Positions 3,480 through 60,682 are shown, numbered from the whole stretch's first letter. The stretch is DNA of 63,951 nt, filler included, from Dicyema japonicum (GCA_011109175.1; 7 parts of 7 records of this genome joined end to end with filler, not necessarily neighbours in it), one strand, 5' to 3'. Notes: a model not told the origin generated them from the sequence alone. Program-made: numbers and translations.

Positions 3480-5002
3480 TCTATTGCTGATTTTAATGAG
3501 ACAATCAATTTAAAATGAACAATATGAATTGTACAAATATTATAATGCTGATGAAACTGGTGTTTTTTACAAGGCGATTCCTTCTAAAAGTGTGTGCACT
3601 AAATCAAGGCCTGGAATAAAGTTGTCGAAGTATCGATTTTCTTTATTATTACGTGAAAATTGTTCTAGTGTCGATAAAAGAAGATCTGTGATGATAGGAA
3701 GATACAAAGATCCATGGTTTTTAAAAAATTTTAACATTGAATATTATGTTGCCTATACCGATTCCAATAAGGTAAGTATAAACCGTGAAATTTTCAACAA
3801 GTGGCTCAATGATTTTAATTATGAACTTGCGAAGAAAAAAAAGAAAAATTCTACTTGAAATAGATCAATGCCCATCTCATCAAATTATCGTCACGTTCAA
3901 ACTCTATTAAAATTGTCTTTTTGCTTCTTAGAACTTCCTCGGTTTTGCAACCAATGGATCAAGGAATTGTAAAATGCTTTAAATGCCGAATTAAAAAATT
4001 TGAAAATAAATAATATAATCGGAAAAGTTGAGACGGGGGGGAATTTTCAGAATGCAATTAATGCAATCACCCTTAAAACTGCTGTGACATTAACATTATT
4101 CGCTTTGGAATAAAGTTCCTCCTAAGACCATAAAAATTGTTTCCGTCATGCACAATGGATAAAATGTGAAACAATCACAATCAACAGTGAATTTAAGAAC
4201 TACGAAAATAATTATGAAGAAATAATTAAGAAATTTCAAAATTGACGATCCAATATCTTATAGTGAATTTGTTGATTATGGATATACTGAAAATGAAGAG
4301 CTAATGAATTTTTAGAAAAATCTGAACAAGCTGATACATTACAGTAAAAAAGATTTTAATCAGTTAGTGGTTTTATACAATAATTATACTTAGGAAACAA
4401 TTCTTGAAGAGGAATCAAATGAGAAGAGCGTTAAACCTATAGAAACTTTTAGAGCTCTTGATATTATTAAAACTTATGTTTCTCAGGTAAATACCGATAT
4501 AGATAATCACTAAAATATTATACGAATTGGGGAAATGTTAAGAAAATTAAAGACAAAACATAAAATTTCTGATTTTTTTGAATATAAATAATTTTATGTA
4601 TTCAGTCATTTGTATATAAAAAGAAATCATTTTGGGTAACCGGCCCTCTTACGACTTCTTTCATCAGAGAAGTCGGAGGAAAAGTTGCTAGGCGACGTGG
4701 GGAGCCTCGAGAAGTGTCATGGTTGTTCCAACAAATTGGAATAGCTGTCGTTCGCGCAATGCACACTCCATCATGCGTGCAACCGCAAGTTTAATTAATT
4801 AGTATCTCTGTTTCTATATCGATTTAAATAATAATGGATTTTCTCATTAAAAAAAAAAAAAAAAAATAAAATAAAATAAAAAGAAATATTTAATCTATAT
4901 TGTAAGTTCATGTTTCAACTATAAAATATTATTTGAATTTGCTCTCGAATCCGCCGATTTTGGGACCGGCCAAAAAATCGGCGGATTCGAGAGATTTTAC
5001 TG
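3480..5002 (+). mobile_element. pogo/Tigger transposase relic with right terminus
   Basis: YNADETGVFYK, IDQCPSH and TSSVLQPMDQGI DDE motifs with frameshifts; terminus ...GATTTTACTG|TA at 5002. Confidence 0.85.
4633..4866 (+). mobile_element. 3' end of CRE-like (RLE) non-LTR retrotransposon with poly(A) tail
   Basis: GVTGPLTTSFIREVGGKVARRRGEPREVSWLFQQIGIAVVR(GN) C-terminus, followed by an A-tail at about 4849-4866; interrupts the pogo relic. Confidence 0.7.
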
Positions 5003-6167
5003 TATTTAAAATTTCCATTCAAAATCGAACGCCCCAGATTAAAAATCCATCGCCCGATCTCATAAAATTCATCGCCCCATTTGGGCGATATCGCCCACGT
5101 TGAGAACCACTGGTCTAGAGTTAAGCGATTTTGAGAGGATGGATTCATTTTTTCATTGACGAGTCAACAAAAATTAATTACATATCGTCCGTCATTAAGA
5201 CATTTATGAACACGTAAATAGTTTCATACATCACATCGAGTTACGGACTCGTACATATGATAGGGCAAGAGTCCACAGTCAAATGAGAGTGAGATGTGGT
5301 AAATATGGACTGTTTCGTCAGCAAATTCCGGTCTTTTTTCCCCTTATTCCGTATGATCCTTTACGAACATAATTCTGAATAAGGGGAATTAGAGTTTTCT
5401 TTTTTTAACAAACTTGGAGCTATGTCTAGAACTGATTCTTCCAATTCATTAATTTTTTTACTACTTCGTCTACAACAGTGGTTCTCGACATTTTTTAGAC
5501 TGGGGACCACTTTTGCACTATAAAATTTTGTAGGGACCACCTTAAATAATGCGATTATCTTGTTCATTCAATTCGATAACTCTTTGAGATAGTTAGACAA
5601 AATCACCACCAAAACTACCAAAAAAACCAGACATGGTGGTCTACTGATGAAGAATTATATAATGTGTTAGATATCTTATTCTCCAGAATGAAAAAGGAGG
5701 GGCGGGCCAGTGCATGGAGTTTTGTACGCATTCAGTCTTCTATTGATGACACCCTCCAATAGTAGAAAACGACTAATCGACAATAATACACAACCCAGTC
5801 CACTATCAAGTCATATTATCCAATAAATAAACCTTTTTCCCTAGGGCAGGGGTCACCAAACTTTTTGCACTCGCGGGCCGGAGCACGTGGATAGGATTAT
5901 AATTGTACTAGAAATTCATAAGTGTGTTTTTTCAATAAAAACTAATTTAACAAAAATAAAGTCAAACACTCACTCAAAAATTATTGATTATATTCTGAAA
6001 TTCGCCATTTTCTCAAATTCGCCGCAAAAATGACGGAACCAAATATGGCGAATTTGGGAGTATTCACTGTACTAACTTTGTTGCTATTTAAAAAGCTCAT
6101 TACACTGAAGACCATTGAGTGAAGAGCAATGAGGATTACTACGAAGAAAAGTCCGATTTACTGATTA

Positions 6168-7270
6168 CAGTCCGACCTCTAATTGGGGCGCACCTCCAGG
6201 GGTGGGGCACCTCTTTTTTGGGGAAAACTCTGTTTTGGGGCATTATAAATTTTTTTAACCAAATTATAAAAAATCAATTAATTTTAACATCTCTATTTGA
6301 GGCATTGATTTTTTATTAAATAAAATTAATTATACCAATTTAAAAAAATTAATATTTTAAGACACGTTTCATTTCAAATTTCTTGTGTAATGCCTTTGAA
6401 TTATGAAACCAAGTTGAAGATTGCTGATCATCTTTTAAAGAAAGAACATTCTGAGAGGAGATTATCCATAATGTACAATTCTAGCAAGGGAACTATTTTT
6501 CGTATAAAAAAGAATATTCTTCCATTTATCAAAAAAGGATTTCTTTCCTCATCATTAAGTGAAAATAAAACGGATTTGATGAAAAAGTCCTTGATATTTT
6601 TCAGCGTCTAAGGGATCAGAATGTTCCAGTTTCTGGAACTCTTTTAAAAAAAATTTCCCTAACTGTTTCTTCGAGAATGGGCTTAAACAAGTTTAAAGCT
6701 TCAAATGGATGGTTAGAAAAATTCAAGCAGAGGCATGAATTAAAATTCCGAACATTGTCAGGCGAATCTGCATCTGCTGATCATGCGATAATTTTGAATT
6801 TTTTATCAGAATTAAATATCAAAGTTGAACAATATGGAAAGGAGAAAGGTTTTTTATGTTTTCAAGACGACCAGGAAAAGGTTTTGACAATCTCCATCAG
6901 ACTCGAGTTGCATAAATGAATCATCTGAAGAAATATTAAATAATGTTATTGATGAATGTTTCGATGAAATTGAAGAAGATAATGATGCACATCTCTATGA
7001 GGATATATACTGTGAACCGTCAATATTAAAAACTTTAAGTTTGATGAAAAACTTTGAGACAAACATTTTTGATTTGATTCCTGAGTATCTTTATTATTTT
7101 TATGAATTCAGAAGGAAAGTGTCGTTAGGAATTAAAAATAAATGGAGAAAATTAACTGATTATTTTAAAAATAATGTTCTTTTTTTTATTTATTGAGCTT
7201 TTTGAAAAACCTCTTTTTTGGGGAAACCTCTGATTTGAGGAACTTAGTGCCCCATTTAGAGGTCGGACTG
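6168..7270 (+). mobile_element. pogo/Tigger element, internally deleted (DNA-binding domains kept, DDE lost)
   Basis: TA|CAGTCCGACCTCTAA...TTAGAGGTCGGACTG|TA; CENP-B-type HTH FKASNGWLEKFKQRH...LSGESASAD; frameshifted in this copy. Confidence 0.9.
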
Positions 7271-7429
7271 TATATCAATAATCTGATAGCAAGAAACATA
7301 GTCCTCAATAACCAATCCATTAAATAAAATATGTAGATTCCGACTATGACTTATCCAAAACGGACAACGAAAAATGAATTAATTGAACGTGGCAAAACAC
7401 TTGTGAGGCATATCTAAGTTGTATGGTCT

Positions 7430-8500
7430 TATACTACTGCGTGTATTTTTACCAGGTGCCCGGGTGTCTGAACTGATGACTTTCTTGCGTTGATTTGGAG
7501 GTAGGCAGATTTGTCCATAGCAAACGAAAGCCGCTTGCTAACGCACCACTCTTTTATCATTTCGATGTATTTGAAAAACCGTTTTTCTGAGGCTTTTGTA
7601 TCTTTCGAGGTGTCTAGGACAAGAACGTCGTCAGCGTAAAGGAAGAAGGTAGTCCGGAAGTTGGGAGTAAAGGGAAACTGCTCATAACCAAGTTAAATAA
7701 AAGTGGACTGAGACAAGACCCTTATGAGAGATGTCCAGGCATACGAGAGATAGAGTTCCTTTGAACTCCATTGCTCTCGAGATAGACGACTGTACCGTTA
7801 TGAAACAGTCACTGCAGCTTCGTCCAGAGCGGAAACCCCATTGTTGCGGAAGCAACACGTTTTTGTCCTCGGCGATGAAATCGAGGCGCTTGGCCATGAT
7901 TTTTTCCATCAGTCTTGAGATGGTTGGGATTAGGCTTATGGGACGGTAGCTGCTGGCTAGGTTCACGGGCTTAGCAGGCTTTTTGATCATCCGAACCTCG
8001 GAGATTTTCATCCTTTTGGCACGTGCCCCCATTTCAGGCTTGCCGAGAACAGGCGCGCCAGGAACGCATGTAAGTCTACGGAGGCTTCTTTAAACAGCCG
8101 CATCGGTAGCTTGTCGTGGTTCGGGGCGTTGTCCCTTGCCGAACGGATAGCCCAGGTCACATCCGCGGTCGTGGTCGGATGGTGGTCCGACGACAATAAA
8201 CGCGGCAGCTATTTCGACTCGTAACCTTGCAGCGTTCCTGGACACGTCTCTTGGATTTTGGCTAGGTGTTCCGCGAATATGTTTGGAATCTCCTCCGGCA
8301 AGGCAGGAATGCCGGATTGGCTGCACAGCTCCGGAGGAGAGGATTTTCCTATGAGGTTTGTCACTTTACTGTCCAAATTTAGGTTTGTGTGATCAAGATA
8401 TTTGCAAGCCTTCTGCCATTTCCTGGCTTCTTTATCGTGTGATTTAGTTTTCCTCCAATTGCAGAGATCATATCTTTAATCATGGCCCGGTCGGTGCTTC
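7430..8500 (-). mobile_element. Jockey/I-group non-LTR retrotransposon RT fragment
   Basis: VPKGWK...KKPAKP...SSYRPISLIPTISRLMEKI, QWGFRSGRS, CLDIS and YADD-region remnants; internal deletion after LDIS. Confidence 0.8.
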
Positions 8501-8529
8501 TAATTTTTATGAGTTTTTCTAATTTTTAT

Positions 8530-10340
8530 AAATGCAGCTCAAATCCCTTATGGAATGGCTAAGGATGTGGAAAAACTCAAAAATGGAACGCAGATGTTCA
8601 AGGCTGTTCACTTACTACATAGAGGCACCCAGGCATCAAAAATCATAGTACACGATCAGTTTGGTAAGAAAATGCTAAAGAAAAACGAAATTATATCGGC
8701 TATATCTCGCCACTATCAGCTTGGCTTCAATCAAAACGATGGTGAAAACACCAAACAATTTGATGGCGAAGCACGAGAACTAAACATTCCGATAACGATT
8801 CTGGAAACAAAGAACGCCCTGGACAAACTAAACAACAATAAAGTTCCTGGCCCTGACAACATAAACGCAGAACTCTTCAAATATGGTCCGAGTGAGATCC
8901 CCGAGGTATTAACCGAGATATACAACAAAACATTCAAATACAACTCCCCATTAGACGTAGGTAATGGCACACTAATTGCACTACAAAAACCGGCCAGAGC
9001 TAAAGAACCTTTAACAAATTTAAGACCCGTTGTACTACTGACGACTCTCCGAAAGACACTATCACTTATAGTGTTGAATAGGATTGGATCTGACATTGAG
9101 AACTTTCTCTCTCACGGTCAAAGTGGATTCAGGCCAGGGAGATATACAGATGATGTGGTCTGGGGACATCGATGGCTTTGTGCAATACATCAAAAGTACA
9201 AGGGGGCTACTGGCATCCTTGGCATGGATATGTCCAAGGCCTTTGACTCTATACTCAGAGGGAGACTTCTCAATATCTTGGAGAATTTGGTTGACGAGGA
9301 CAGTGTCAGAATGATCCGTCTATTACTCGGAACTACGCAGTTGAGTTCACGTCTCGCTAATGTGGAGTCTGTCCCATTAGAGACAACGTTCGGGGTACCG
9401 CAGGGAGATTCCTTGTCACCGGTACTTTTTTTGATATATCTAAAGGCGGCACTCAAAGACTGTAGACTATTAATTGGCAACCTACCTCAAACTGAAGTGA
9501 TTTATGCAGATGATATCGACTATATATCCAGCGACGAGAAAACATTAAACTATATACGGACAAGGATGCCAGATGTCCTAGAAAAATGGTTCATCAAAAT
9601 CAATACGGAAAAGACGGAGACAACTACCATACGCCGTGAACTTAACCCGAACTGATGAAAAATGGAGATACTGTAAAAAATTGGGGTCGTTGCTCGGAGA
9701 CGCTGAGGATATCACTAACAGGAAGATGTTGGCCGTCGCGGCCTTTAGAAAAATAGTAGTCTGGAATCATCGTAAACAAATTAGCACACAATTACGTGTG
9801 AGACTATACAATGCCTTCGTGAAAAGTCCTAATGTACAACGCTGCAACCTGGGGGTCTCAGAAGCGGTAATGGACAAACTAGATGCCTTCCATCGTAAAC
9901 AACTCCGACTGTTGCTTGGCATCAACTGGCCAAAAAAAATTACAAACAAGAATCTATACAAAGTATGTAATACAAGACCATTGAGTCTGGATATCCTGAA
10001 TCAAGATGGCGTCTGTTTGGTCACATCCTTCGAATGAGCCAGATGACGCCTGCTAACAATGGATATTTTCTGCCCAGAAGTGAACAACTCGTTCTGTGGA
10101 AGACCTCGCTTAACTTTGCCAGAGGTACTACACAAGGACCTGACCAATGTAAGACGAAAACTGAACACAAGAGATGATTGGATATGCTCAGAGAAATTAC
10201 AAAAAACCGTAGCTTGGAGGAAGTTAGTTACGAGAATTGGGAAAGAATAACCTGAAGTAAAGCACGGCACAAGCGGAACCTCAATTAAATAAATTACTTT
10301 TTGGTTCTTCGAAAGTGCTATTAATAATAATAATAATATT
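8530..10340 (+). mobile_element. RTE-clade non-LTR retrotransposon, 5'-truncated, frameshifted RT
   Basis: PGPDNINAELFK, GMDMSKAFDS, GVPQGDSLSP, YADDI, LDAFHRKQLR, RWRLFGHILR; (TAA)n tail at about 10323-10338. Confidence 0.9.
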
Positions 10341-11260: not shown

Positions 11261-11670
11261 TTAAGTGAAGAACATTGGCCTTTCCTACGATTAATCAGAA
11301 TTTACTGTTCTTTACTTAAAAATAAAGTGTGTGTCTTGCCTATGCGGGGTCATAAAGCTTTCGTGAAAAGGCTAATTACGAGAACGCGCATCTGATCACG
11401 TGCAGCCTGGATGAGTAATGTATAGCTTTAATAATTTCACGAATGACTTATATCCCGCTCCCACACGAGCTACCCATCCCATGGTGGCTACATGTCACCT
11501 GTCAACCTATCATAATGCCTGTCACAGTGACTGTCAAAATTAATTTCATTGGGTTCTTATCAATAATCGTTTCAACAATAAAGAATTTATTAAAATTAAG
11601 CGTCTATGTTTTTTTACTTGATTCATATTAATTATTTTAGATTTCCCCGAAAGTGTCTTAATCTGATATA

Positions 11671-12083
11671 CACCCCTCGACAAAAAACCACAATACGAAA
11701 TTTATATAAAAATGGAATTTTCGGAAGAATTGCAAAGAAAAAACCAGTTCTAACAAAAAAACACATGGTTTCCAGATTCGAGATCGTCAAAAAATTTCTT
11801 CAAATTTCAGACCATGATTTTAGATCAATAATGTTTTCTGATGAATGTATTTTTGAATTATTACCGACCCAAAAAAGAAAAATTGTGTATAGAAAAAAAT
11901 TTGAAATGAATAAATCCGAAAATATTACTCCAACTGTCAAATTTGAAAAAGGTAAATTGTGATGTAATAAAAAATTAGGGAAAGTCATGGTCAGATTTTA
12001 AAGTATCTCGGAAGAAAAAATTAAATCATTCTGTGTATAAATTAAGTAAGTTGATGATTCACCAATATTTATGTCGAGGGGTG
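11671..12083 (+). mobile_element. Tc1-family deletion derivative
   Basis: TA|CACCCCTCGAC...GTCGAGGGGTG|TA; keeps GRIAKKKP...IMFSDEC...TPTVKF segment. Confidence 0.9.
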
Positions 12084-13391
12084 TATATAATAATAAAATA
12101 GACCATTAGTCGATTGTATGACAAAATTTGAATAATTTCAACTGGTTCTCCATATGGGGATTCAAATCTGTTTAACTTAAGTGAAGGATTTGTCCCATAA
12201 TCCTTAAAAACTCGAACCTATCAATTATTCACTAAACATACTTTATTCCCAATCGAAAAATCGTATTTCGATTGATGAACATTCATTTTTTTATTCATCC
12301 GTTTAAAATACGATGAATTTAAATTCGGTGGAGAAAAAGTCAATACAAAATTATTAGGATCCAAGTTTTCTAGCATACTTTATACAAAATTTACCTGAAA
12401 CATCTGAAATATTTTCTACATCCAAATCCTCAGATGATAGTCGATAAAAATTATCCAAACTTTCACTTTCTTAAAAATTAAAAAAAATTCTAAAAAACTT
12501 TTATACTCATGAATCACGGTGTTTATTCCAGAAACTCCTCTTAGTTTTTTAATAGTGTTTCGTTTATGGACGAATGAATGGTTGTGTTATATATAAAAAG
12601 TGATTCTTTTAATAAATTGAATCCAGTTTTTTGTTGATTCTTCGCACATCAGCTTTGAAAGATTTCGTGTCAAAGTTTGATTAACCCTTTCCACGATACC
12701 CTGAAACAGATAAATATTGTATCATTACTTGTGATTGAGGATGATTTGGTCTTCCATAAATATGTTTGATTTTGTTTTTAAGGCAGAAAGAATCGAGATA
12801 CTCATTTATCAACTCCGTTAGATTATCTGTTTGTAGAATCTTACAAAAGCCGATTTCAAAACCAATTTTTTTGAATGCTTCAAAAATATCTAAATTCCAA
12901 TATCAGATTTAAATATACCTATTGCAGATTTATTTTTTACTCCTTTACAAACATCAATGACGGTGAACATCCATTTTTAGCCATCATTTGAGTCGTTAAA
13001 TTTTTTAGCGTCTATAAGGTCTGCTCGGAATCGTTCATTTGGTCTTTTGGCAATCACATGGAATTTAGAATCGGAAACCTGCTATTAATTTTTTATTTTA
13101 TACTTTAAGTAGAATAGAAAACATGCAAATTGAGCATTCTTTGACAACTCGTTCTATAATTTTCCGCTGTATAGTAAAATCAGAGTGTAAACATTACTGT
13201 TGCAGTTTACGAATTCCAGAATGGCTATTCCGATGAATAGAATCCGCAATAGTTTGCATTTCACTCTGATTATCTATGCAAATAACTAATTTGTGCTTTT
13301 GAAATCTTTCGTCTTTCAGGTGTTAGCGGTCATCAATAACAATAAATTTGGTAGATTTTTTCGTTAATTTATATTTTATCTGCCTTGAGGA

Positions 13392-14615
13392 CAGGGTTGT
13401 TAAAAATCATGATTTTTATTAAAAAAATCAAAAAAATCAGATTTTTTTGATTTAAACATGATTTTTTTGATTTAAATCAGATTTTTATTCATTTTTGTCT
13501 AAACCAACAGCAATTGGTTTGATCAGCCGCAAATATTCTTCAACACGACGTTTTAGACAAATATTTTGGACTTTGGAAGTAATATCTGTATCAAAATCGG
13601 ATATGTGTTCTTCACAAATTCTCAAAATTAACGTCAGCTACTTCTACATCTTCTTTAACGTCAGCTACTTCTACATCTTTTGAAGGTTGAGATAATGTGC
13701 CGAGCAACCATATGTAATAATTTCACTGTCATCTTGCATCACTATCCGCCTCATTTTAGCCATGTTTCCAGCATTGTCCGTCACAAGACTCCCGATTTTA
13801 CATCCAAACCGTTCTCGGCAGACTGTGTCCAGAGGTGTCCACAGTGTCAATTAGATAGCTTTCTCCATCCGATGTTTCAACCGAAACACAAATAACAGGT
13901 TCATTATGAATGTTACTCCACCCATCCAGCATCATAGACACTGTTTGTCCTGGAGTCTTTGTCGACAGTCCTCATGTAGTTGGTCGTACACTCGATCGAG
14001 CAATGGACCACCAATTTGATGACGAGAAGGTAAACGATAGCCAGGAAGAAGCATTTGGACAAATTGAACAAATTCGAGATGTACTACAGCAGCAAAAGAA
14101 GTGTTAGTGGAATATACGTATCTAGCGAGTTGCATATCTATCAAATTTTTTTCCGATAACGTCATCGTAGTAACGAAATTGATTAATGATTGGTCCCTCA
14201 TCCTCAGGGGCAACTCACTGATTAAACCACTTTCAACTTTCGACGGATTTTCAGGGATATCAAAATTAGTTCGGCATAACAAATAATGCTGCCTCATCCT
14301 CAGGGGCAACTCGCTGATTAAACCACTTTCAACTTTCGACGGATTTTCAGGGATATCAAAATTAGTTCGGCATAACAAATAATGCTGCCTCATCCGAGAT
14401 ACGAGACCTTGTACCTCCTTCCCGCAATTACGGCATCTGGCTCGACTGACAGTCTTTCCAGGAATAATATGTTTATCGAAATGAACCCACCTACCAGACA
14501 TTTAATCAATTTAAACAATTTCTACCAACAATGATTTTTTTGATTTTTTTTAATGATTTAAATCACCGATTTTTTTTGTTGATCAAAATCAAATGATTTA
14601 AATCAAACAACCCTG
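13392..14615 (-). mobile_element. hAT transposon (BED-finger transposase), internally deleted
   Basis: TIR CAGGGTTGTT at both ends; perfect 8-bp TSD CTTGAGGA (13384-13391, 14616-14623); WVHF...CRNC...MRQHYLLC BED finger; MMLDGWSN first catalytic Asp in a shifted frame; GATTTAAATC subterminal repeats. Confidence 0.92.
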
Positions 14616-14704
14616 CTTGAGGATGTCTGTACAGGTTCGCCATTTAAGATACTCACTATAGATTGATATTCTGCGATATTTATCACAAAACATATTATTA
14701 TATA

Positions 14705-15250
14705 CAGTGACTCCTCTGAAATTGGCCACCTCTGAAATTAGCCACCTCTGAAATTGACCACACTTATAAAATTATCTTAAGAAAAATTCGAATTTCCATT
14801 GAAATTGGCCAATTCTCAAATTGACCATAAATTTTAAAATATATTTTATATAATTTGCAAATTAATAAAATTTCAGTTATTTTTTTAGTACATGTCTTCT
14901 AACAATTCTCGTGGTAGTTATACTCGTCTCACTTTTTATCAAAAAATACAGATTTTAACTTATAAAAATCAAAATGAAGATGTTTCATGTCAGTATTTGG
15001 CTGATAGATTTTCCCATTTGTGTAAAAAGAAGATTTCCAGAAAAACAATTAATAATATTATTTTGAAAAAAGATTTTTTTCTCAAAGAGTATAAAAAACA
15101 AAATCTATCTTCAAAAAATGCGCATAGACTCAAGTTCCCACAGCTTGATGGTATGTTAGTTGAATGGATGGATTCGATTGAGTCCAAAGGTAATTTGTAC
15201 TAATTTATGATTAAGGTGGCTTTCTTAATGATGCTTTAATTTCAAGTTAG
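14705..15250 (+). mobile_element. pogo/Tigger 5' fragment with a micro-intron in the transposase
   Basis: TA|CAGTGACTCCTCTGAAATTGGCCAC with internal repeats; RLTFYQKIQIL HTH and KFPQLDGMLVEW CENP-B HTH; 26-nt intron 15190-15215. Confidence 0.8.
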
Positions 15251-16990: not shown

Positions 16991-17310
16991 TGCAACAGTC
17001 GACAGCATCTTTCTTCTCATAATGTCTTCGTTTCGAATACTCAAGAAATACCTGAGAAATTGATGGACTCCTTCGAAGTGAAAATATCAAAGATGAACAA
17101 GTCGAAAACATCAAACAAATATTCGTAGTTGAGTGAGATGATGTAAGTATCAAATTATGGATGACATTGAGAAAAAGATTGGGAGTCACTTCAAAGATGT
17201 TGAAATATCCAGAAAATTGTTATTTATAATATTTTATAAAATATGATTTTTTTAATTTTACGTTGGCTACCTAAATTATGATAATTAAATAAAGGATTAT
17301 AAATATTAAA

Positions 17311-18862
17311 ATGAGATTTTTTTTGCCCTATATATTATTGTGTCACCAAGTGGCATCTGAAATTAAAATCAAAATCAAAACGGTCGATTCGAAACTTGTA
17401 GAAAACTATCATATTGGATGGTTCAATACATATGTAACAAATTGTATTCATGATTGCAGGTCAATCACTTTGATCCCTACAACATGGATAAATTCTCTAT
17501 GAAATACATATATTCTTCAAAGTATCATAAACCAGGTGGTCCAGTCCTTTTTTATCCCGGAAACAAAGACCGAATTGAAAAATTCGCAGAGAACTTAGTC
17601 ATTTTTTCCATTTATTTAAATAGGAATTTGTATGGAATGCTGCAGCCGAACTAAACGCATTTATCATATTTGCTGAACATCGATATTACGGAGAGTCAAT
17701 TCCAAAAAATATCAATCATGTTAAATACAATTATAATGTTTAGAATAAACAATTTCCCTATTTGTCATCTCAACAAGCGATTGAAGATTACATTGGAATG
17801 ATTTATGAATTATTTCCCGACGAGAAGGTCATAGCCATTGGCGGAGGATATGCAGGGATCTTGGCGGTTCGAATGAGGATGAAATCTCCCGCAAAAATCA
17901 CTGGGTTGACCTCATACTCTAAAATAGTGCGTTTGCCTCATCTGCTCCAATCATGATGTTCAACGGACACGCAGACTGTAGTTCTCCCTTTGAAATCGTC
18001 ACCGAAGTTTTCCGAAAAGCCAATCCAAACTCGGTTGAAAATATTAGAAATGTTTTCAAACTCGTCCAAATTGATTACCTCAGTCTAATCTAAGTCAACC
18101 TAGTTTAGAACATCAAACAAATACACTTTCTAAACTTGGAATTTGCAATTTTTACAATTTTCCTATGGCTTATTTGAATATACAAAAAGTATTTTTAGTG
18201 GCGGCAATGGCTAATTACAAAACTTCTTCGACACTTTTTAAGAATTTACCAGCCCGTCCACTTGATGTATAGTTTGTATTGAGAATTTTTAGAAAATCTC
18301 AGATTTTTTCTCAACTCCAAACATGGAAAAAAATGAATTGGTCTCAGCCTTATATAAAACTCTGAAATTTTATTTTCAAAATGATAGCCAAACGGAATGT
18401 ATTAACATAACCAAAATATCTGACTCTTCGTTTACAACCGAGGAAAATTTTCAGGTTTTTTTAAATAAAAAAATATTTTAGTTTTGCACTGAGATGCCTT
18501 ATCATTTATGTTCGCGAGAAAGTTCAAAAAACATGTTTCTCGAAATGGATTTCGACATTAATGACATAGAGAAGGCCTGTTGGGATAATTTCAGAGTAAT
18601 TCCAAAAAGGAAGCTCAATACTATAAATGCAAATATCGTGGATTTGTCTTCATTTAAGAATATTATATTCAGCAATGGAGAATTTGACCCCTTTAATGGA
18701 GGATGCTATCACAACACTGCTAACAAGGAGATTACTGTCATTGAAATCTCAGGAGCTGCTCATCAATCTGACTTAAGGAAGCCGTCAGCATATTTGGACA
18801 GCATAAGTCTGAAATCTGCAAGGAATCAGACGATCAAAATAATTAAATCTTGGCTCTACTAA
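17311..18862 (+). CDS. PRCP: Peptidase family S28 (lysosomal Pro-X carboxypeptidase/DPP7-like) homologue, 8 exons, predicted catalytically inactive
   Basis: Seven GT-AG introns (17434-17459, 17598-17623, 17720-17743, 17905-17927, 18083-18108, 18267-18292, 18455-18481) give one stop-free frame with VNHF, PVLFYPGN, AEHRYYGES, YLSSQQAIED, ASSAPI, FCTEM, NIIFSNGEFDP, GAAHQSDLR. Confidence 0.9.
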
Positions 18863-19455: not shown

Positions 19456-19880
19456 NNNNNNNNNNNNNNNNNNNNNNNNNNNNNNNNNNNNNNNNNNNNN
19501 NNNNNNNNNNNNNNNNNNNNNNNNNNNNNNNNNNNNNNNNNNNNNNNNNNNNNNNNNNNNNNNNNNNNNNNNNNNNNNNNNNNNNNNNNNNNNNNNNNNN
19601 NNNNNNNNNNNNNNNNNNNNNNNNNNNNNNNNNNNNNNNNNNNNNNNNNNNNNNNNNNNNNNNNNNNNNNNNNNNNNNNNNNNNNNNNNNNNNNNNNNNN
19701 NNNNNNNNNNNNNNNNNNNNNNNNNNNNNNNNNNNNNNNNNNNNNNNNNNNNNNNNNNNNNNNNNNNNNNNNNNNNNNNNNNNNNNNNNNNNNNNNNNNN
19801 NNNNNNNNNNNNNNNNNNNNNNNNNNNNNNNNNNNNNNNNNNNNNNNNNNNNNNNNNNNNNNNNNNNNNNNNNNNNNNNN

Positions 19881-20110
19881 TGGGGTAACCGGCCCTCTTA
19901 CGACTTCTTTCATCAGAGAAGTCGGAGGAAAAGTTGCTAGGCGACGTGGGGAGCCTCGAGAAGTGTCATGGTTGTTCCAACAAATTGGAATAGCTGTCGT
20001 TCGCGGCAATGCACACTCCATCATGCGTGCAACCGCAAGTTAATTAATTAGTATCTCTGTTTCTATATCGATTTAAATAATAATGGATTTTCTCCTTAAA
20101 AAAAAAAATA
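19881..20110 (+). mobile_element. CRE-like non-LTR 3' end with poly(A)
   Basis: WLFQQIGIAVVRGNA; duplicate of 4633-4866. Confidence 0.7.
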
Positions 20111-21546
20111 AAATAAAATAAAATAAAAAGAAATATTTAATCTATATTGTAAGTTCATGTTTCAACTATAGAATATTATTTAAATTGCCTTTCGAATCCG
20201 CCGATTTTGGGACCGACCAAAAAATCGGCGGATTCGAGAGGTTTTAAATAAAATAAAAAGAAATATTTAATCTATATTGTAAGTTCATGTTTCAACTATA
20301 GAATATTATTTAAATTGCCTTTCGAATCCGCCGATTTTGGGACCGACCAAAAAATCGGCGGATTCGAGAGGTTTTACTGTATTTAAAATTTCTATTCAAA
20401 ATCGAACGCCCCAAATTAAAAATCCATCGCCCCATCTCATAAAATTCATCGCTTCATTTGGGCGATATCGCCCACGTTGAGAACCACTGCTCTAGAGTTA
20501 AGCGATTTTGAGAGGATGGATTCATTTTTTCATTGACGAGTCAACAAAATTAATTACATATCGTCCGTCATTAAGACATTTATGAACACGTAAATAGTTC
20601 ATACATCACATCGAGTTACGGACTCGTACATATGATAGGGCAAGAGTCCACAGTCAAATGAGAGTGAGATGTGGTAAATATGGACTGTTTCGTCAGCAAA
20701 TTCCGGTCTTTTTTCCCCTTATTCCGTATGATCCTGTACGAACATAATTCTGAATAAGGGGAATTAGAGTTTTCTTTTTAACAAACTTGGAGCTATGTCT
20801 AGAACTGATTCTTCCAATTCATTAATTTTTTTACTACTTCGTCTACAACAGTGGTTCTCGACCTTTTTTAGACTGGGGATCACTTTTGCACTATAAAATT
20901 TTGTAGGGACCACCTTAAATAATGCGATTATCTTGTTCATTCAATTCGATAACTCTTTGAGATAGTTAGACAAAATCACCACCAAAACTACCAAAAAAAC
21001 CAGACATGGTGGTCTACTGATGAAGAATTAATATAATGTGTTAGATATCTTATTCTCCAGAATGAAAAAAGGAGGGGCGGGCCAGTGCATGGAGTTTTGT
21101 ACGCATTCAGTCTTCTATTGATGACACCCCTCCAATAGTAGAAAACGACTAATCGACAATAATACACAACCCAGTCCACTATCAAGTCATATTATCCAAT
21201 AAATAAACCTTTTTCCCTCTAGGGCAGGGGCCACCAAACTTTTTGCACTCGCGGGCCGGAGCACGTGCATAGGATTATAATTTTACTAGAAATTCATAAG
21301 TGTGTTTTTTCACTAAAAACTAATTTAAACAAAAATAAAGTCAAACACTCACTCAAAAATTATTGATTATATTCTGAAATTCGCCATTTTATCAAATTCG
21401 CCGCAAAAATGACGGAACCAAATATGGCGAATTTGGGAGTATTCACTGTACTAACTTTGTTGCTATTTAAAAAGCTCATTACACTGAAGACCATTGAGTG
21501 AAGAGCAATGAGGATTACTACGAAGAAAAGTCCGATTTACTGATTA

Positions 21547-22652
21547 CAGTCCGACCTCTAATTGGGGCGCACCTCCAGGGGTGGGGCACCTCTTTTTTGG
21601 GGAAAACTCTGTTTTGGGGCATTATAAATTTTTTTAACCAAATTATAAAAAATCAATTAATTTTAACATCTCTATTTGGGGCATTGATTTTTTATTAAAT
21701 AAAATTAATTATACCAATTTAAAAAATAAATATTTTAAGACACGTTTCATTTCAAATTTCTTGTGTAATGCCTTTGAATTATGAAACCAAGTTGAAGATT
21801 GCTGATCATCTTTTAAAGAAAGAACATTCTGAGAGGAGATTATCCATAATGTACAATACTAGCAAGGGAACTATTTTTCGTATAAAAAAGAATATTCTTC
21901 CATTTATCAAAAAAGGATTTCTTTCCTCATCATTAAGTGAAAATAAAAACGGATTTGATGAAAAAGTCCTTGATATTTTTCAGCGTCTAAGGGATCAGAA
22001 TGTTCCAGTTTCTGGAACTCTTTTAAAAAAAATTTCCCTAACTGTTTCTTCGAGAATGGGCTTAAACAAGTTTAAAGCTTCAAATGGATGGTTAGAAAAA
22101 TTCAAGCAGAGGCATGAATTAAAATTCCGAACATTGTCAGGCGAATCCGCATCTGCTGATCATGCGATAATTTTGAATTTTTTATCAGAATTAAATATCA
22201 AAGTTGAACAATATGGAAAGGAGAAAGGTTTTTTATGTTTTCAAGACGACCAGGAAAAGGTTTTTGACAATCTCCATCAGACTCGAGTTGCATAAATGAA
22301 TCATCTGAAGAAATATTTAATAATGTTATTGATGAATGTTTTGATGAAATAGAAGATAATGATCCAAATATCTATGAGAATATAAGCTGCGAACCATCAA
22401 TATCACAAATTTTAAGTTTGATGGAAAACTTAGAGACAAACATCTTTGATTTGATTCCAGATTCTCTTCATGATTTTTATGAATTCAGAAAGAAAGTGTC
22501 GTTAGGAATTAAAAATAAATATGGAGAAAAATTAACTGATTATTTTAAAAAATAATGTTCTTTTTCTTTATTTATTGAGCTTTTTGAAAAACCTCTTTTT
22601 TGGGGAAACCTCTGATTTGAGGCACTTAGTGCCCCATTTAGAGGTCGGACTG
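21547..22652 (+). mobile_element. pogo/Tigger element, internally deleted; intact 175-aa DNA-binding ORF 21768-22295
   Basis: TIR CAGTCCGACCTCTAA with TA TSD; CENP-B HTH motif; no DDE. Confidence 0.9.
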
Positions 22653-22809
22653 TATATCAATAATCTGATAGCAAGAAACATAGTCCTCAATAACCAATCC
22701 ACATTAAATAAAATATGTAGATTCCGACTATGACTTATCCAAAACGGACAACGAAAAATGAATTAATTGAACGTGGCAAAACACTTGTGAGGCATATCTA
22801 AGTTGTATG

Positions 22810-23880
22810 GTCTTATACTACTGCGTGTATTTTTACCAGGGGCCTGGGTCTCTGAGCTGGTGACTTTCTTACTTTGATTTTGAGGTAAGAAGATTTGTCC
22901 ATAGCTAGCGAGAGCCGCTTACTGACGCACCACTCCTTTATCACCTCAATGTAATTGGAAAGCCGTTTTTCCGAGGCTTTTGTGTTTTTTGAGGTGTCCA
23001 GGACGAGAATATTGTCAGTGTATAGGAGGAAGGTTGTGCGGGGGTCGGAGGGTGACGGGAAACTGCTCATTACCAAGTAAAATAGAAGTGGACTGAGACA
23101 GGACCCTTATGAGAGATGTCTAGGCATATGAGAGATAGAGTTTCTTTAAACTCCATTGCTCTCGAGATTATGAACTGGACCGTCAGGAAGCAGTCACTGC
23201 AGCTCCGCCCAGAGCGGAAACCCCATTGCTGTGGAAGCAGCACGTTCTTCTCCTCGGCGAGGAAGTCGAAGCGCTTGGCCATGATTTTTTCCATCAGCCT
23301 TGAGATGGTTGGGATTAGGCTTATGGGACGGAAGCTGCTAGCCAGATTCACCGGCTTCGCAGGCTTCTTGACCATCCGGACCTCGGAAATTTTCCATCCT
23401 TTTGGCACGTGGCCCCATTTCAGACTTGCCGAGAACAGGCGCGCCAGGAACGCGTGTAAGTCTTCGGAGGCTTCTTTGAACAGCCGCATAGGTAGCTTGT
23501 CGTAGCCCGGTGCGTTGTCTCTTGCCGAACGGATAGCCCAGGTCACATCCGCGGTCGTGGTCGGATGGTGGTCCGACGACAATAAACGCGGCAGCTATTT
23601 CGACTCGTAACCTTGCAGCGTTCCTGGATACGCCTCTTGGGTTTTGGCCAGGTGTTCCGTGAATATGTTTGGAATCTCCTCATGCGAGGCAGGCATGCGG
23701 GATTGATTGCACAACCTCGGTGGAGATGATTTTCCTATGAGGTTTGTCACTTTACTGTCCAAATTTAGGTTTGTGTGATCAAGATATTTGCAAGCCTTCT
23801 GCCATTTCCTGGCTTCTTTATCGTGTGATTTAGTTTTCCTCCAATTGCAGAGATCATATCTTTAATCATGGCGCGGTCGG
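22810..23880 (-). mobile_element. Jockey/I-group non-LTR RT fragment
   Basis: APGYDKL, PKGWK, FRPISLIPTISRLMEKI, QWGFRSGRS, YTDN (degenerate YADD). Confidence 0.8.
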
Positions 23881-33839: not shown

Positions 33840-36800
33840 TCAGTACATGTTTATCCTAACTTTCGATCGATGACCGAATCTGTCATTTTTGAAAATTGTG
33901 AACCACCCAAATGAGGTGGGGGAAGAAAGGAAGTACCCATTTCCATATTGGGAGAACTCCAAGGACTTTCTGGAATAACACAGTCATTAACATGGAAAAC
34001 TGATCTTCGAAGCATTTTGTTGAAAATAAAACTTTCAGATCAGGAAACGACATAAAATTTAAAGTGTCGTCCCCAAGTAAATATACGAGTCCCTTAACTT
34101 TGTTATTTTTAAAATCGTTCCTTTGGACGTAATCGATCTTTAGACAGCACGTGGAATTACTTTTTGGGACAAAACGTGCTGAATTGTGTAGTTTGAGGTC
34201 CCTTAGATTATAAATCTATCATTTTGTAGATTCCACTAACTTTGACTTTTCGGTTTGTGCAAATGACCAGACGGTCCTCTCCCTTCGCCATGGTAGAGGC
34301 ATTGTCGATGAGGTCATAATCACAGGTCAACACGAATATTTCCAATATTGGATCTTTGTTGATTAAAAGAATCTCGTCAGCTAAACATTATTCGATTTAC
34401 ATGCCGAGATTGATCAGTGGAGTTTGGAATCTGTCATCTATGGCCGAAGGATGAGACTTTACAGTAAATATAAGAACCCTTCCAGAATTGGTTCCCACAA
34501 ATAGTTTGAGTCCTGAACTGTTACTGATAAAGTCTAAAGTCACATCCTTCCACCAACCAGATTTAAGTTGAGTGTGAGCAAAGCATATGGCCTCTATTGA
34601 GTAGTCAGGTATGAGAGAACTCTGATGGTTTGTTTCCACGTGCAAATTCCTGAAGCTCTGTCGTCTCGAAAAAGATCTCCTAAAAGATCTATTGAGTCTG
34701 CTGAACGATCTAGTTAATGCCGGTTCCACGTTATCTAAACATGAAACTCATGAGTAACTATTAGGGATCGTAGTATCAAGTAAATATATGCACGTGCTAT
34801 TGGCGTAGTCCAAAATGGCGAAACCGTGAGTAGTCCCAATGGCAAGCCTAGAATTTACAAGTTCCATACTTTTTGGCTTGGGAAAAGAGACTCAGTTGAA
34901 TGGAAGAATAAACTGGGTAGATTTTGAAGACGGATAACAAAAGAAATCTCCCACGTGTATTCTTAAAGGTGGAACTGTCTGAATTTGAGTAAAAAGGACG
35001 GTTGGCCACAATGTTAACTGTTGTGACCTGCGAGGATTCAGCACAAGGACAGACCGCGACCGATGATCCGTTTTCTCTTGAATGTTCCTCTGAGCAGTCG
35101 AAAATCATGACGTGGTCCACAAAACCACAAATAACAAAAATATTGGAAGTCGTATCGTAATATAGTTTATTAATTGTGAATCGTTTGTCATTGGATCCAA
35201 AATGGTGGTTAGAAACCTAAATTTAATTCCTTACTCACTTGGGAAATTTTGGGATGCCCAAGGTCGGGGATTTCTTTAAAACTGAATCCAAAATATCTGG
35301 AAACGTTCATTTTGAGTAGTGGGTGAATACTAAACTCCGCAGCCTGCCAGAACCCTACCACCCCCTCCATGTGACTAGATTGATTAGACAAGTCACCCGG
35401 TAATGATGATTTCTGACACATCGTTCGTTTCTCCCAGTTGATAGTCATTTCTCAGCATCCACGACTTTTTATAACTGCAATTTTCAGAATTTGGCCAGGA
35501 ATCCTTGGAGTACAGCTTTTGGGTTGATTTCTGGGACAAGAACATGCACTGTGAGCAGACAATTTCGGGGATATTGACAGAACAGAGATACGAGGGGTTG
35601 ATTTCCTTCCACTCATCGTCGATGAGGTCGATGGCGATTAACTCATCCTCAGTGAAGACCAACAGAAAGCTGGGAGAGTCTGAGAATTCAAAATGCGCAG
35701 TTTAACCTGATTGATCACGAATAACTAGAAAATCAATGATTTTCATGTTGAACTGGAATACCTTGTGATTCGAGGAATTCACCAACGTCAAAGTGTCCTC
35801 GCAGTGAAAAGACTGGGGAGTTCCACCAATGAAACACAAATAATTGTTGGAACTTATGAATTCTATTTTTCTGATGGGACAACAGACTGCATAAGCTTCA
35901 ACCAAACCTTGGTCATAAGCGGAGATCTTGAAGGAATTGTTTACACCGTTTTCGTTGTATATCGAATATTTTCCGTCCTTGAATGCACACACGAAGGCGT
36001 TGCCTTTGGAATTCCAGGAAACTGTGCTAATAATCTAAACTAGCCCAATATAAGTTTACAGAGTTCATGATACATCGATTTATGGGCACATTCTTCTGCA
36101 TATCCCAAATAATCAGCATTCCGTTGTTGAAGAAAATCAAAAAGAGAGCCGCATTGACTGGATTGTTCTTCATCGACACAATGTAGACATCCCCTCCATT
36201 ATTTCTGCTACAGATTATACACTCAGACAAACTTTTCCTTGCTTTTAATCAAAAATTTGGTTTTGGGGGAAAAGTTGGACAGATCGAGCACAACAATGTC
36301 TTCTTCTTCCCTCAAAGCCCGGTTATCCACTCCAAGCAACAGTTTTTTGTTGACTACGATCGCACAGGAAATTTTTGAATCGATTCTATGACTTATTATC
36401 TAAACTAACATTGTTGCTATATTGATTGAGTTTATCCAAATTACCAAAGTCCCCTCTTCGCATTCCTGGAGTTGGTAGACGGATATTTCTTTGTCCCCAA
36501 TCAGGATAATTTGTTTCTAGTTCTAATAAACCCAAAACCTTGCTGCTTCTAAAAAACAGAAGTCCCCTCTTCGCATTCCTGGAGTTGGTAGACGGATATT
36601 TCTTTGTCCCCAATCAGGATAATTTGTTTCTAGTTCTAATAAACCCAAAACCTTGCTGCTTCTAAAAAACAGATAATTTCCGTTTTCGTTTATTGGACAT
36701 TGAACCTCTGTTCCAGGATATCCGTAACTAAGTTTCAGTAAAACGTGAATACATGTGCAAGATATTCCTTGCGGTTATTGCTATCAAGTCGAGTTTTTTA

Positions 36801-55135: not shown

Positions 55136-56252
55136 CACCCCTCGACAAAAAATTTGGTTATTCAATCTTTCCTGCTTTTATTCATTTAAAAACGAATAAA
55201 TTCATAATTTAAGATTCTTTAGATCTTCTAAAATAATATTTATTTTGTATTTATAATAAAAATAGATTAAAATTTCAATATTGCAAGAAATTTAAAGCAT
55301 GTCGGCAATTAGGCTAGTGACATTAAAATTGGTTATAAAATTTAAACCGTAAAATTATGCTAGTATTTAGAGTTTGATCTTAATAAAAAAGTATTTTTAG
55401 ATATAATACTCTCGATTCGTTTCTGAAAGGGAAAATAATTGCGCCATACGACCTAAATATGTCCTATATTAAAATTTCTTAAGAAACCGGTGTTCCATAT
55501 TCAACAGTCTTAAATTTTATCAAAGAGTAAAATAAAACTAAATCATATGACCGCCAACATGGTTCTGGAAGACCATCAATTTTGAATAATGTATAAATTA
55601 ATCATTTGGTACGCACATCAGAGGAAAATTCATCTTTAACTGCTTCTGAACTTTCTAATGAAATAGAAAAGTTTTCTGATACACGTGTCTTGTCTCGAAC
55701 CACAATACGAAATTTAAATAAAAATGGAATTTTTGGAAGAATTGCAAAGAAAAAACCAATTCTAACAAAAAAAACATGGTTTCCAGATTCGAGATCGTCA
55801 AAAAATTTCTTCAAATTTCAGACCATGATTTTAGATCAATAATGTTTTCTGATGAATGTATTTTTGAATTATTACCGACCCAAATAAGAAAAATTGTGTA
55901 TAGAAAAAAATTTGAAATGAATAAATCCGAAAATATTACTCCAACTGTCAATTTTGTAAAAGGTAAATTGTGATGTAATAAAAAATTAGGGAAAGTTATG
56001 GTGTGGGGTTGTTTCTCCTATCCTAGGGTAGGCGATTTTGTATTTATAGACAAGACGCTTAATTCTGCAAAATATCAATCTATTTTGATTGATAATTTGC
56101 CACATTCTGCACAAAAAATGGGGATTGTTGACTATATTTTTCAACATGACAACGCTCCCAGCCATACATCAAAAATGATTATTCAATATTTTCGCGAAAA
56201 CATATTAAAAAATTAGAATGGCCTTCGCAATCTCCGGATTTAAATCCGATAG
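55136..56252 (+). mobile_element. Tc1 (DD34E-type) transposon, pseudogenised, 3' end in gap, transposase with 27-nt intron
   Basis: TA|CACCCCTCGAC terminus; GRPS, MFSDEC, KG|KVMVWGCF, FQHDNAPSH, WPSQSPDLNPI(E). Confidence 0.92.
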
Positions 56253-58339: not shown

Positions 58340-59248
58340 ACGCTTGATTTTGAAGGCGGAGTAGGCAAGATATCCGATGCATCAAGTGGAGATGAAAGCG
58401 TCATATTGCCTTCTGCCTCGGATTCTTCGTTTTCGGTGCGAGGCACTCACTCGGAGTCGACTCCGTCTGGGTTCCTCTGGAAGTTACTGTGACTTCTGGT
58501 ATTAGGTTTCCTATATCCGTTTGCACACTCACATCCACAGTTTGTTTTACAGAGATCTTAGTGCAGATCTGGACTTCCTTCTCCGTAGCCAGCATTCTCT
58601 GGTCGACCATCGTTTTTCCAGATTTTTAGGATTGGCAATCGGTTCAGACGCCTGCCTGATCGGAGAGTCAATTTTTTCTTGAACGACGATTTGTCCCTTC
58701 CGGGTGGTGTCCCATCCTGCTCCGGCTTGGGTTTCCCCCACACTGACTTTCGAGAACTTATTTCTTTGGAAGCCTTTTGCAATAGGGCAACCTCCGTAGT
58801 TCGCTCAGTGATCCGATGAGCCGCAGTTAACACACGTTCTGGTCCTGTCAGGCGCGAAGTTGCACTGGTCCCGTCCGTGCGGGCTTCCATACCGTAGGCA
58901 GCGCTCCTGCTCTCTGCAGAATCGCGAAATATGCCCAAATTTCTGGCATCTGAAGCATTAAGTTTCTGGTTTTTTTAAACCATCCGAATGAAATCTCCTT
59001 GAAACCGAGCTTCATTCTTAGTCTGACAAGAGATTAAACTTCGATCTTGTTCTGCATCGTGAGTTTTGCCACCGGAAGAGGCACCTCTTTACGGAGGAAC
59101 CTCTTCACTTTGAAACCCGGAGAGATTGAACGGGATAGCAGGTTGGCCAAAGCATTGTCTGTTACCCAATAAGGCAGGTTTCGTATAATTAGTTCTAAAT
59201 TCCGAGGTGTCAAGTTTCCTTGGGCCTTCCATACCTCTCCTTTGGCAT
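58340..59248 (-). mobile_element. Gag-like ORF1 of a Jockey/I-type non-LTR element, decayed
   Basis: A frame not listed in the ORF track reads CFRCQKFGHISRFC...CLRYGSPH...C...CVNCGSSDH*ANYGGC (three zinc knuckles), preceded by LIIRNLP. Confidence 0.8.
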
Positions 59249-59715
59249 ATTTTATCTATTAAATTAAAAACCTTGATTTACCTAGACTCAATTATTTGAT
59301 CAAATGTTAATTATTGCAGCAGCCGGATAGAATGGAGACTCGAATTTATCCAGCTGCAACGAAGGGTTCGTTCCATAATCTTTTTTAACTCGGATTTATC
59401 TATAACTTTATTATCCAAACTTTATCTCCGACACCAAATTCGTATTTACTATGTGGACATTCATTTTCCTATACATTGCCCAATTAAGTAAAATGTACTT
59501 AACCTTGTGATTCATGTCATTAGAGATTAATTAAATACGAATTAGCTTAAAAAATATAATATTTTTTTCCGATAAAATATCTTAATTTAAAAATCAAATT
59601 ATTTAATATGATAATCGTTTAAATAGATCTGTTAAACGTAAAAATATGATTAATATTTAGCTTATGAATTTAATTATTCCTTTCTAAATTTTTTCTAATC
59701 GGAAGAAGATAGTCA

Positions 59716-60682
59716 ATGAGAACCATTTTATTGCTTTTTTTCATTGGTGCGCATTCAAACTTGTAGGCTATTCCCCCGGAGTAGACAATTCTGTGTCATT
59801 TTCGACAAACAAAATAACTGCAGTGAGTCTGACTAATTCCACATTACGAGCCATTGGGAACAACCTTCATTCCCTGGCCTATACTCAATCGTCCTTCAAC
59901 TGTATGAACAATTCTTTAATATTCCCTAATTCCCTCGTCCCACTGGGCGACTATGCTGACATTGCGATGATCTTCCCTCATTCCGGGACATTTTTCTCGT
60001 GTTTGTGCACAAAAAAGTCATGTGACCACCAGGGAAACTGGACTGCCATTACCGTGATTAAAAAACCGCAGACCAAAATTCCTTTATGGATTTCCATTCT
60101 TTTGATGATAATTTGTGTAATGCTGTCTGCACTCTTCAGTGGATTAAACTTGGGACTTATGTCTCTCAACTTGACAGAATTGGAGATTTTTGAACAGTGT
60201 GGGTCGGAATTGGAGAAATCCTACGCACGGATAATCCGGCCAGTGAGAAAACACGGAAACTATCTTTTGTGCACAATCCTCTTTGGAAATGTGCTGGTGA
60301 TGACTTCACTCACAATTCTCCTGACTGGGTTGGTGGGGCCTGGCCTTCTCGCAGGGATTTACTCCTCCTTCTCCATAGTCATCATCGGGGAAATTGTTCC
60401 TCAGGCAATCTGTTCGAGACACGGGCTTATGATTGGCGCCAAAACTATTTGGTTGACCAAATTATTTCTGGTGGTGACATTCCCGTTGTCATTTCCGGTC
60501 TCATTCGTGCTGACCAAGCTGATTGGAGAAAACATTGACCGTGGATACAGCAATGAGCAACTAATGGCTCTCATATCTATCGAAACCCAACGTGATGAGG
60601 AGTACAGACATAATGAGATGGATATAATCAACGGGGCCCTTCAAATAAGCAAAAAAATGGTGGGGGAGGTCATGACGTACAT
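59716..60682 (+). CDS. CNNM: CNNM/ACDP metal transporter (DUF21 domain, start of CBS pair), 3'-truncated by gap
   Basis: LSALFSGLNLGLMSL, GNYLLCTILFGNV, GEIVPQAICSRHGL, IINGALQ, VGEVMT; ATG 59716 joins in frame through a 20-nt intron 59747-59766. Confidence 0.92.

Follow-up and report, generated by a model that had tools for sequence, protein, structure and literature searches.

Can a DNA transposon carry as many introns as the genes of its host? This question is raised by a locus of Dicyema japonicum (GCA_011109175.1), found in a window of 63,951 nt, which is the whole stretch of DNA that we have analyzed. At about 11451-14704, on the minus strand, there is very probably a class II element coding for a Ginger-type integrase with real introns. 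The locus is damaged: Three elements (hAT, Tc1 and pogo) are nested in it or abut on it, and its 5' end is gone. Its features are listed in Table 1.

Table 1. Features of the integrase element and of the elements nested in it. Positions are counted from the first base of the window.
Feature	Position	Strand	Evidence and remarks
Element 3' end, candidate TIR arm of about 55-63 bp	11451-11513	+	First bases decayed in locus copy; contig alignments of other copies
Subterminal TGTCA repeats (four TGTCA, one TGACA)	11493-11536	+	Sole such cluster in window
Exon 8, end of SH3-like C-terminal domain	11609-11662	-	Spliced alignment; one extra base at 11608 in other copies
Intron 7, 26 nt minus Tc1 and one TA	11663-12103	-	Knock-out score drop 24
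Nested Tc1 deletion derivative, TA duplication	11671-12083	+	HTH_Tnp_Tc3_2, E 3e-6; own 27-nt GT..AG at 11952-11978
Exon 7, C-terminal domain, region aligned with Ty3 GPF motif	12104-12217	-	Spliced alignment
Intron 6, 24 nt, two in-frame stops	12218-12241	-	Score drop 16
Exon 6	12242-12369	-	Spliced alignment
Intron 5, 25 nt, variable linker	12370-12394	-	Score drop 1.5; weak homology support
Exon 5, acidic linker	12395-12469	-	Spliced alignment
Intron 4, 29 nt, GTT donor	12470-12498	-	Score drop 3.4; weak homology support; 46-nt alternative nearly equal
Exon 4, catalytic Glu 12691-89, frameshifts at about 12592 and 12566	12499-12700	-	Spliced alignment
Intron 3, 28 nt, three codons before catalytic Glu	12701-12728	-	Score drop 26
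Exon 3, second Asp 12827-25	12729-12889	-	rve 67-102, E 0.001
Intron 2, 29 nt, small indels among copies	12890-12918	-	Score drop 19
Exon 2, first Asp 13021-19, stop 12979-77, 18-nt deletion	12919-13078	-	Spliced alignment
Intron 1, 25 nt	13079-13103	-	Score drop 29
Exon 1, 3' part, HHCC zinc finger, two stops	13104-13391	-	Spliced alignment
Nested hAT derivative, BED finger, 8-bp TSD	13392-14615	-	zf-BED, E 0.001
Exon 1, 5' part, cut at pogo/Tigger end (TA 14703-04)	14616-14704	-	Start, promoter and 5' TIR missing

The introns were predicted by spliced alignment of the locus, with the hAT and Tc1 elements removed, to a profile of ten database relatives. No intron positions were supplied. The result is a set of seven introns of 24-29 nt, with a score of 490, compared with 360 when introns are forbidden. 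A preliminary description of this DNA had proposed at least six micro-introns: All six were recovered, and the unguided alignment added a seventh (12470-12498). The five which had been listed directly are all GT..AG on the minus strand and lie where they had been placed. For one of them (13082-13103) a length of 22 or 25 nt had been given; the longer version (13079-13103) fits better, the shorter one makes the protein one residue too long. The sixth, a reconstructed intron of 26 nt, does appear once the Tc1 and one TA are excised, and a Tc1-free allele is seen in a contig of run X1 (joint 11660->12093). Removal of the hAT and one TSD restores the frame, as had been claimed: The 8-bp TSD is found at 13384-91 and 14616-23, and the reading across the excision aligns to the relatives with one 1-residue gap.

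When the splice sites are knocked out, the score falls by 16-29 points for each of five introns, and by 1.5 and 3.4 points for the two introns in the linker. These two, introns 4 and 5, are proposed from frame, stop codons and composition, with weak homology support. They add up to 54 nt and the frame could pass through them unspliced, but the unspliced linker would contain two stops and a hydrophobic stretch where the relatives are acidic. The intron which had been described just before the catalytic Glu is confirmed three codons ahead of it, and its excision leaves exactly 35 residues between the second Asp and the Glu.

It might be argued that these segments are not introns but small insertions of the ordinary kind, in a gene that has decayed. 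GT..AG segments of this size are in fact common, since 23 of the 1257 start positions in 12104-13391 open one of 20-30 nt. Two of the seven donors, moreover, read GTT and GTC. The motif alone is therefore weak, and the gaps in homology carry the case: Five of them match the relatives to the codon, and all the segments (7/7) are GT..AG of host size. Other copies of the element carry the segments too, with indels inside intron 2 (among the 12 best-supported indels, of 72, three fall in the integrase gene, all inside this intron), and two segments recur in a diverged second family. We consider plain insertions very improbable. A further GT..AG of 31 nt, at 13167-13197, was rejected as an intron, the zinc finger reads straight through it. 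No intron-skipping joint is found among 15 of the 39 contig joints; the four sequencing runs, all from one sample, behave as DNA. We thus speak of predicted introns, whose splicing we infer from the sequence.

The predicted spliced product has 415 codons and reads as an HHCC/D-D-35-E integrase with an SH3-like tail. An intact integrase would likely have roughly 420 residues, made up of an N-terminal extension, the HHCC finger, the D-D-35-E core and the SH3-like tail. The zinc finger is formed by H 13235, H 13223, C 13136 and C 13127, and the catalytic triad is given in Table 1. Profile searches, which had been suggested as a check, agree with this: Besides the rve match in exon 3, the profile of the family matches foamy-virus and Ty3 integrases, and its match to Ty3 integrase (E 2e-24) runs from the N-terminal extension through to the GPF tail. 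The HHCC and DDE parts of the architecture first proposed are present. Its GPY/F letters are not kept: In the profile alignment the tail reads SPY where Ty3 has GPF. Judging from this alignment the tail and the GPY/F module are homologous, and one relative (P0006) keeps GPF. Neither an OTU nor a Ulp1 protease is present, the gene stops after the SH3-like tail. The locus copy is dead, as had been stated, with three stops and two frameshifts in the spliced reading. It also lacks 18 nt which other copies have near 12949.

A Gypsy-like integrase with an H2C2 finger and a DDE core is a trait of the Ginger superfamily. The preliminary assignment to a Ginger-type integrase without RT holds: No RT, RNase H or LTRs are found at the locus or in its full-length relatives. 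The RT at 8513-9652, which we take to be of the LINE type, was discarded as the RT of the element, it lies on the opposite strand and beyond the element end. The Ty3 profile match, together with the Gag-Pol or Pro-Pol labels of the relatives in databases, could suggest that the element is an integrase-only remnant, or a non-autonomous partner, of a Ty3/Gypsy LTR retrotransposon. Nevertheless, the relatives are stand-alone ORFs of 420-460 aa without RT, and the reading of the element starts where theirs do. No LTR-like repeat is found between 8 and 19 kb of the window, and the end of the element is TGTCG after TA-ending flanks. Introns are lost when an element passes through an mRNA step, which also counts against such a remnant. 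We find this explanation improbable.

Contigs of four sequencing runs of one sample were aligned over 11300-14900. They occupy every bin of this region. In run X1, 2345 contigs are aligned, many of them 90-95% alike; the count takes in the hAT and other repeats. Many copies are 85-99% alike, and there are internal deletion derivatives. Several unrelated flanks are found at one end, so in this sample the element is a dispersed multicopy family and not a single-copy locus, as the preliminary description had expected.

The terminus had been placed at 11493, which is wrong: This is the start of the internal TGTCA repeats, which are likely to be binding sites for the integrase. Judging from the other copies, the family ends at about 11451. 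In a comparison over 11445-11664, they align from 11459, with TGTCGCG or TGACACG just outside, preceded by unrelated flanks ending in TA. At this one end, the terminal start is thus TGTCG in the other copies (TGACA in one of them), and it is decayed in the locus copy. The flanks end in ATTA, AATA and CTTA: They are AT-rich and TA-ending, not TATA. No second TIR arm is found in the window, where the 5' part is cut off at the pogo end (14703-04). This pogo/Tigger element, beside exon 1, has a CENP-B_N domain at 14892-15200. Some contigs share 11459-11505 or 11459-11513 and then diverge, as the opposite TIR arm would; they are unlinked to the 5' end of the gene, and we regard them as candidates for this arm. 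Two other repeats touch the same region. The 40 bases at 11549-11588 are common to other contigs which differ on both sides, and perhaps belong to another family with a shared subterminal motif. An abundant short repeat (11300-11420, with a summed contig depth of about 220,000 in X1) adjoins the element end.

The density of introns in the element is 5.6 per kb, with eight exons in 1.25 kb. It had been compared to that of a host gene, and this is borne out, host genes having about 5 per kb. Such a density might point to a domesticated single-copy host gene, now a pseudogene. The many similar copies, their deletion derivatives, the unrelated flanks at one end and the presence of a second family in the same window make this extremely improbable. 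This second integrase family is a fragment at 59235-59490 (minus strand), about 70% identical, with intervening segments where introns 6 and 7 lie in the element. Its intron 6 has a decayed acceptor, while intron 7 is canonical, with the same place and length (26 nt). The fragment runs on into an apparent LINE ORF1.

Host genes in the window contain introns of the same size. The peptidase S28 (PRCP-like) gene at 17300-18862 (plus strand) has seven predicted introns of 20-27 nt in 462 codons, which is 5.1 per kb. Pfam positions continue across three adjacent exons, and the Peptidase_S28 domain was missed in three of six exons. Where the nucleophile motif is expected, this peptidase appears to read GGGYAG. 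A lethal-giant-larvae/tomosyn-like gene (32.5-36.97 kb, minus strand) has many introns of 20-30 nt, but it is less reliable and several calls look wrong; about 130 bp appear to be duplicated in tandem near 36450-36700. These host counts are approximate: On shuffled DNA the ab initio intron finder gives 10-29 introns, with scores of 241-382 compared with 674. A CNNM gene (59688-60682, plus strand) is read without introns over about 300 codons. Its product is 94% identical to a protein labeled "Octopus sinensis", from a 668-kb scaffold, and 50% identical to the CNNM of O. bimaculoides. From these identities, we take the record to be, probably, DNA of a parasite within an octopus assembly, and the host of the element to be likely a dicyemid.

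Other transposons in the window also present possible introns. Two copies of Tc1 (11952-11978 and 55963-55989, plus strand) contain a 27-nt GT..AG, and a pogo/Tigger element contains one of 26 nt (15190-15215, plus strand). In both cases removal restores the reading. Their exon pieces alone are unrecognized by Pfam (0/3), and the calls rest on the reading across the segments and on known transposase motifs. In addition, pogo derivatives and small repeats form a block of about 3 kb, present twice in nearly identical form (about 4630-7500 and 19880-22900). On the other hand, the LINE frames, of 347-380 codons, are uninterrupted.

Ultra-short introns are described in dicyemids. In the accessible text of a survey of 51 animal genomes, introns below 30 nt appear only in myxobolids and a dicyemid (PMC13644364), and dicyemid genes are given 6.2 introns per gene, with a mean CDS of 1155 bp (PMC6736024, also from the accessible text). 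The size of the introns in our element is therefore ordinary for the host, it is their number in a transposon gene that needs explaining.

With exon 3 as query, a full HMMER scan found 31 matches, including P0013 (KAG0418124.1, 458 aa), a protein of Dictyocoela roeselum. A word-based protein search with the same exon gave no match, and no relative was found in the viral contigs searched. P0013 and the read-through of the element are 40% identical over 456 columns, and their tails share 52 of 83 residues (63%). With P0013 as query, 66 proteins were found. Those of microsporidia and the unnamed ones came first, followed by KRBA2-like and SCAND3-like proteins. P0013, P0035 and P0038 present rve, with or without a zinc-finger match, and no RT. 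A structure model of P0013 (pTM 0.42) ends in a tail of beta strands, which follows a disordered linker; Foldseek relates this model to retroviral and Ty3 integrases, and the ESM Atlas gives generic rve/H2C2 clusters only.

Trees of 43, 30 and 24 rows were built. The element groups with Dictyocoela proteins and one JGI protein in a clade of six rows (100/99). It is included in an outer clade of 18 rows (100/98), whose seven named rows are all microsporidia (Dictyocoela, Nosema, Pseudoloma) and which has ten unnamed rows. A mixture model gives the Dictyocoela group again (SH-aLRT 100). The support of the outer clade is 81 when a long-branched Mercenaria protein is its sister, and 99 without the Mercenaria row and P0048. 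An AU test rejects the placement of the element outside the 14 relatives (p=0.0009), a group which was named after the trees had been seen. KRBA2 and SCAND3 had been suggested for comparison: Proteins similar to both are among the matches, and the KRBA2-like rows, which we use as stand-ins for Ginger2/TDD, lie outside the clade, with a long branch between.

Are the introns also found in these relatives? The contig of P0013 has 98 spare bases and the seven introns amount to 186, so P0013 cannot contain the full set. By the same bound P0042 cannot have all seven either, but five other relatives could. Several of the microsporidian relatives are on contigs of 1.2-1.5 kb and could be host contaminants. 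In metagenomes, no intron at the positions of the element is found in the best 25 of 80 loci. Of these 25, three have in common an intron at another place, and in three there is one weak intron call elsewhere. The shared intron, of 51-95 nt, lies at the same codon in integrases of a sister clade (L060:1543-1637, L022:488-548, L002:1496-1546). Inverted ends are found in three of ten loci examined, L003, L005 and L008, which are distant relatives, and two of these (L005 and L008) begin with TGT. L005:258-2619 is an apparently complete Ginger2-like element of 2.3 kb, which has TGT ends and lies between two TATA flanks.

The element nests among microsporidian integrases annotated as single ORFs. 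This suggests that it was transferred first and gained its introns later. With moderate confidence, we favor the following account: The copy is dead and belongs to a multicopy family of the Ginger type, without RT; from a microsporidian lineage this family came into a dicyemid-like animal, and there its integrase gene acquired the seven predicted introns, of host size. A stronger version is more tentative, and we put it forward as a conjecture that may well fail. It holds that a transposon without introns passed from a microsporidian to a dicyemid, where 1.25 kb of it took up seven introns and reached the density of host genes while the element still transposed, and that dicyemids add new introns of 25 nt to any resident DNA at a high rate. 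According to the accessible text of the cited papers, microsporidia hyperparasitize dicyemids (PMC4150386, PMC8262960), and TEs have been exchanged between microsporidia and animals in both directions (PMC4202319).

Such two-way exchange is also consistent with the opposite history, in which the family is old in animals and its introns were gained or shrunk in place, while microsporidia took intron-free or stripped copies from animal hosts, perhaps repeatedly. The identity to P0013 is just 40%. The positions of the last two introns are common to both families of the window, which are about 70% identical, and this implies that the introns are not very recent. Animal Ginger1 elements with 0-4 introns are listed in Table 1 of PMC2836005. 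Finally, the microsporidian neighborhood may be a sampling effect, because protein databases favor intron-free single ORFs and under-sample the intron-rich transposases of animals. Nevertheless, this history needs several transfers or intron losses, with Pseudoloma, Nosema and Dictyocoela rows branching around the element, and none of the 66 matches is an annotated animal protein inside the clade. We regard it as possible but rather doubtful.

The simplest reading is a cut-and-paste element, which likely works as follows. The host would transcribe an intact copy, and its short-intron spliceosome would remove the seven segments. The integrase of about 420 residues would bind the TGT-starting ends, presumably a pair of TIRs, and cut the element out, which would then insert at AT-rich sites ending in TA. 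With movement at the DNA level, each new intron would be copied into the daughter elements, and would persist there because the element never passes through RNA. The LINEs alongside do pass through RNA, and their long frames are free of introns.

Dated intron gains from a known intron-free ancestor are rare. If the seven introns postdate a transfer from microsporidia, the family would let us test directly how fast and by what mechanism introns are gained, in an animal whose introns are among the shortest. The transposon families of dicyemids, which have outgroups without introns and copies that can be dated, would then form a natural series for the study of the origin of spliceosomal introns. 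In practice, gene and repeat pipelines overlook whole transposon families in genomes with micro-introns.

How does this element compare with known systems? In size (24-29 nt), and in a GTa..AG pattern that holds hardly any further signal, its introns match the ultra-short ones of dicyemids and myxobolids; introns inside transposon genes are not treated in the accessible text of these papers (PMC13644364, PMC6736024). Class II transposase genes with introns are known in other groups, as far as the accessible text of the descriptions goes. The TLEWI Tc1 elements of bivalves (bioRxiv 10.1101/656579) have them, but are low-copy and without TIRs. CACTA transposases (PMC4158355) have 1-6 exons, with loss prevailing, whereas our element is multicopy and has eight. 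Introns are already known in Ginger elements, up to four according to the text available to us, and in the main texts of the open literature we have found no report of micro-introns in dicyemid transposons, seven of them in this case. Another close system is that of the stand-alone integrases of microsporidia (KAG0418124.1, KAF9752786.1 and their kin), with the same length, domains and start, which, unlike the element, are annotated as single ORFs.

The published Ginger groups are compared here from the accessible text of their descriptions. GingerRoot (PMC6839031) differs by its TA...TA ends, 6-bp TSD and lack of HHCC, while our element has HHCC and a TGT end. Ginger ends follow a TGTNR rule (PMC2836005), with which the TGTCG start of the other copies agrees; Ginger TIRs measure 40-300 bp and the TSDs 4 bp (5 bp in Tdd), and the candidate arm at the one end seen here has about 55-63 bp. 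Ginger1 resembles the element in its Gypsy-like domain layout, TGTNR ends and canonical introns (PMC2836005), but it has an OTU/Ulp1 tail, a CCGG/CCGT-type target and the GPY/F letters, and the introns of the element are more numerous and far shorter. Ginger2/Tdd, the source group of KRBA2/SCAND3 (PMC3575427), shares H2C2 and DDE, absence of RT, the TGTNR end and AT-rich flanks (PMC2836005). Its target is RTATAY, and the flanks of our family end in ATTA, AATA and CTTA. In contrast to Ginger2, the element has seven introns below 30 nt and a long branch separating it from the KRBA2-like rows. Ginger2 is described without GPY/F and YPYY (for YPYY we go by the text of the description); the GPY/F letters are absent from the element as well, yet its clade has an N-terminal extension and an SH3-like tail which align with Ty3. 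We therefore assign the element to the Ginger type without placing it in one of the groups: From the sequence available, its ends and flanks seem to resemble those of Ginger2, and its domain layout that of Ginger1, except that there is no protease. It points to a group of microsporidian integrases, labeled Gag-Pol in databases, which fits neither Ginger1 nor Ginger2 cleanly.
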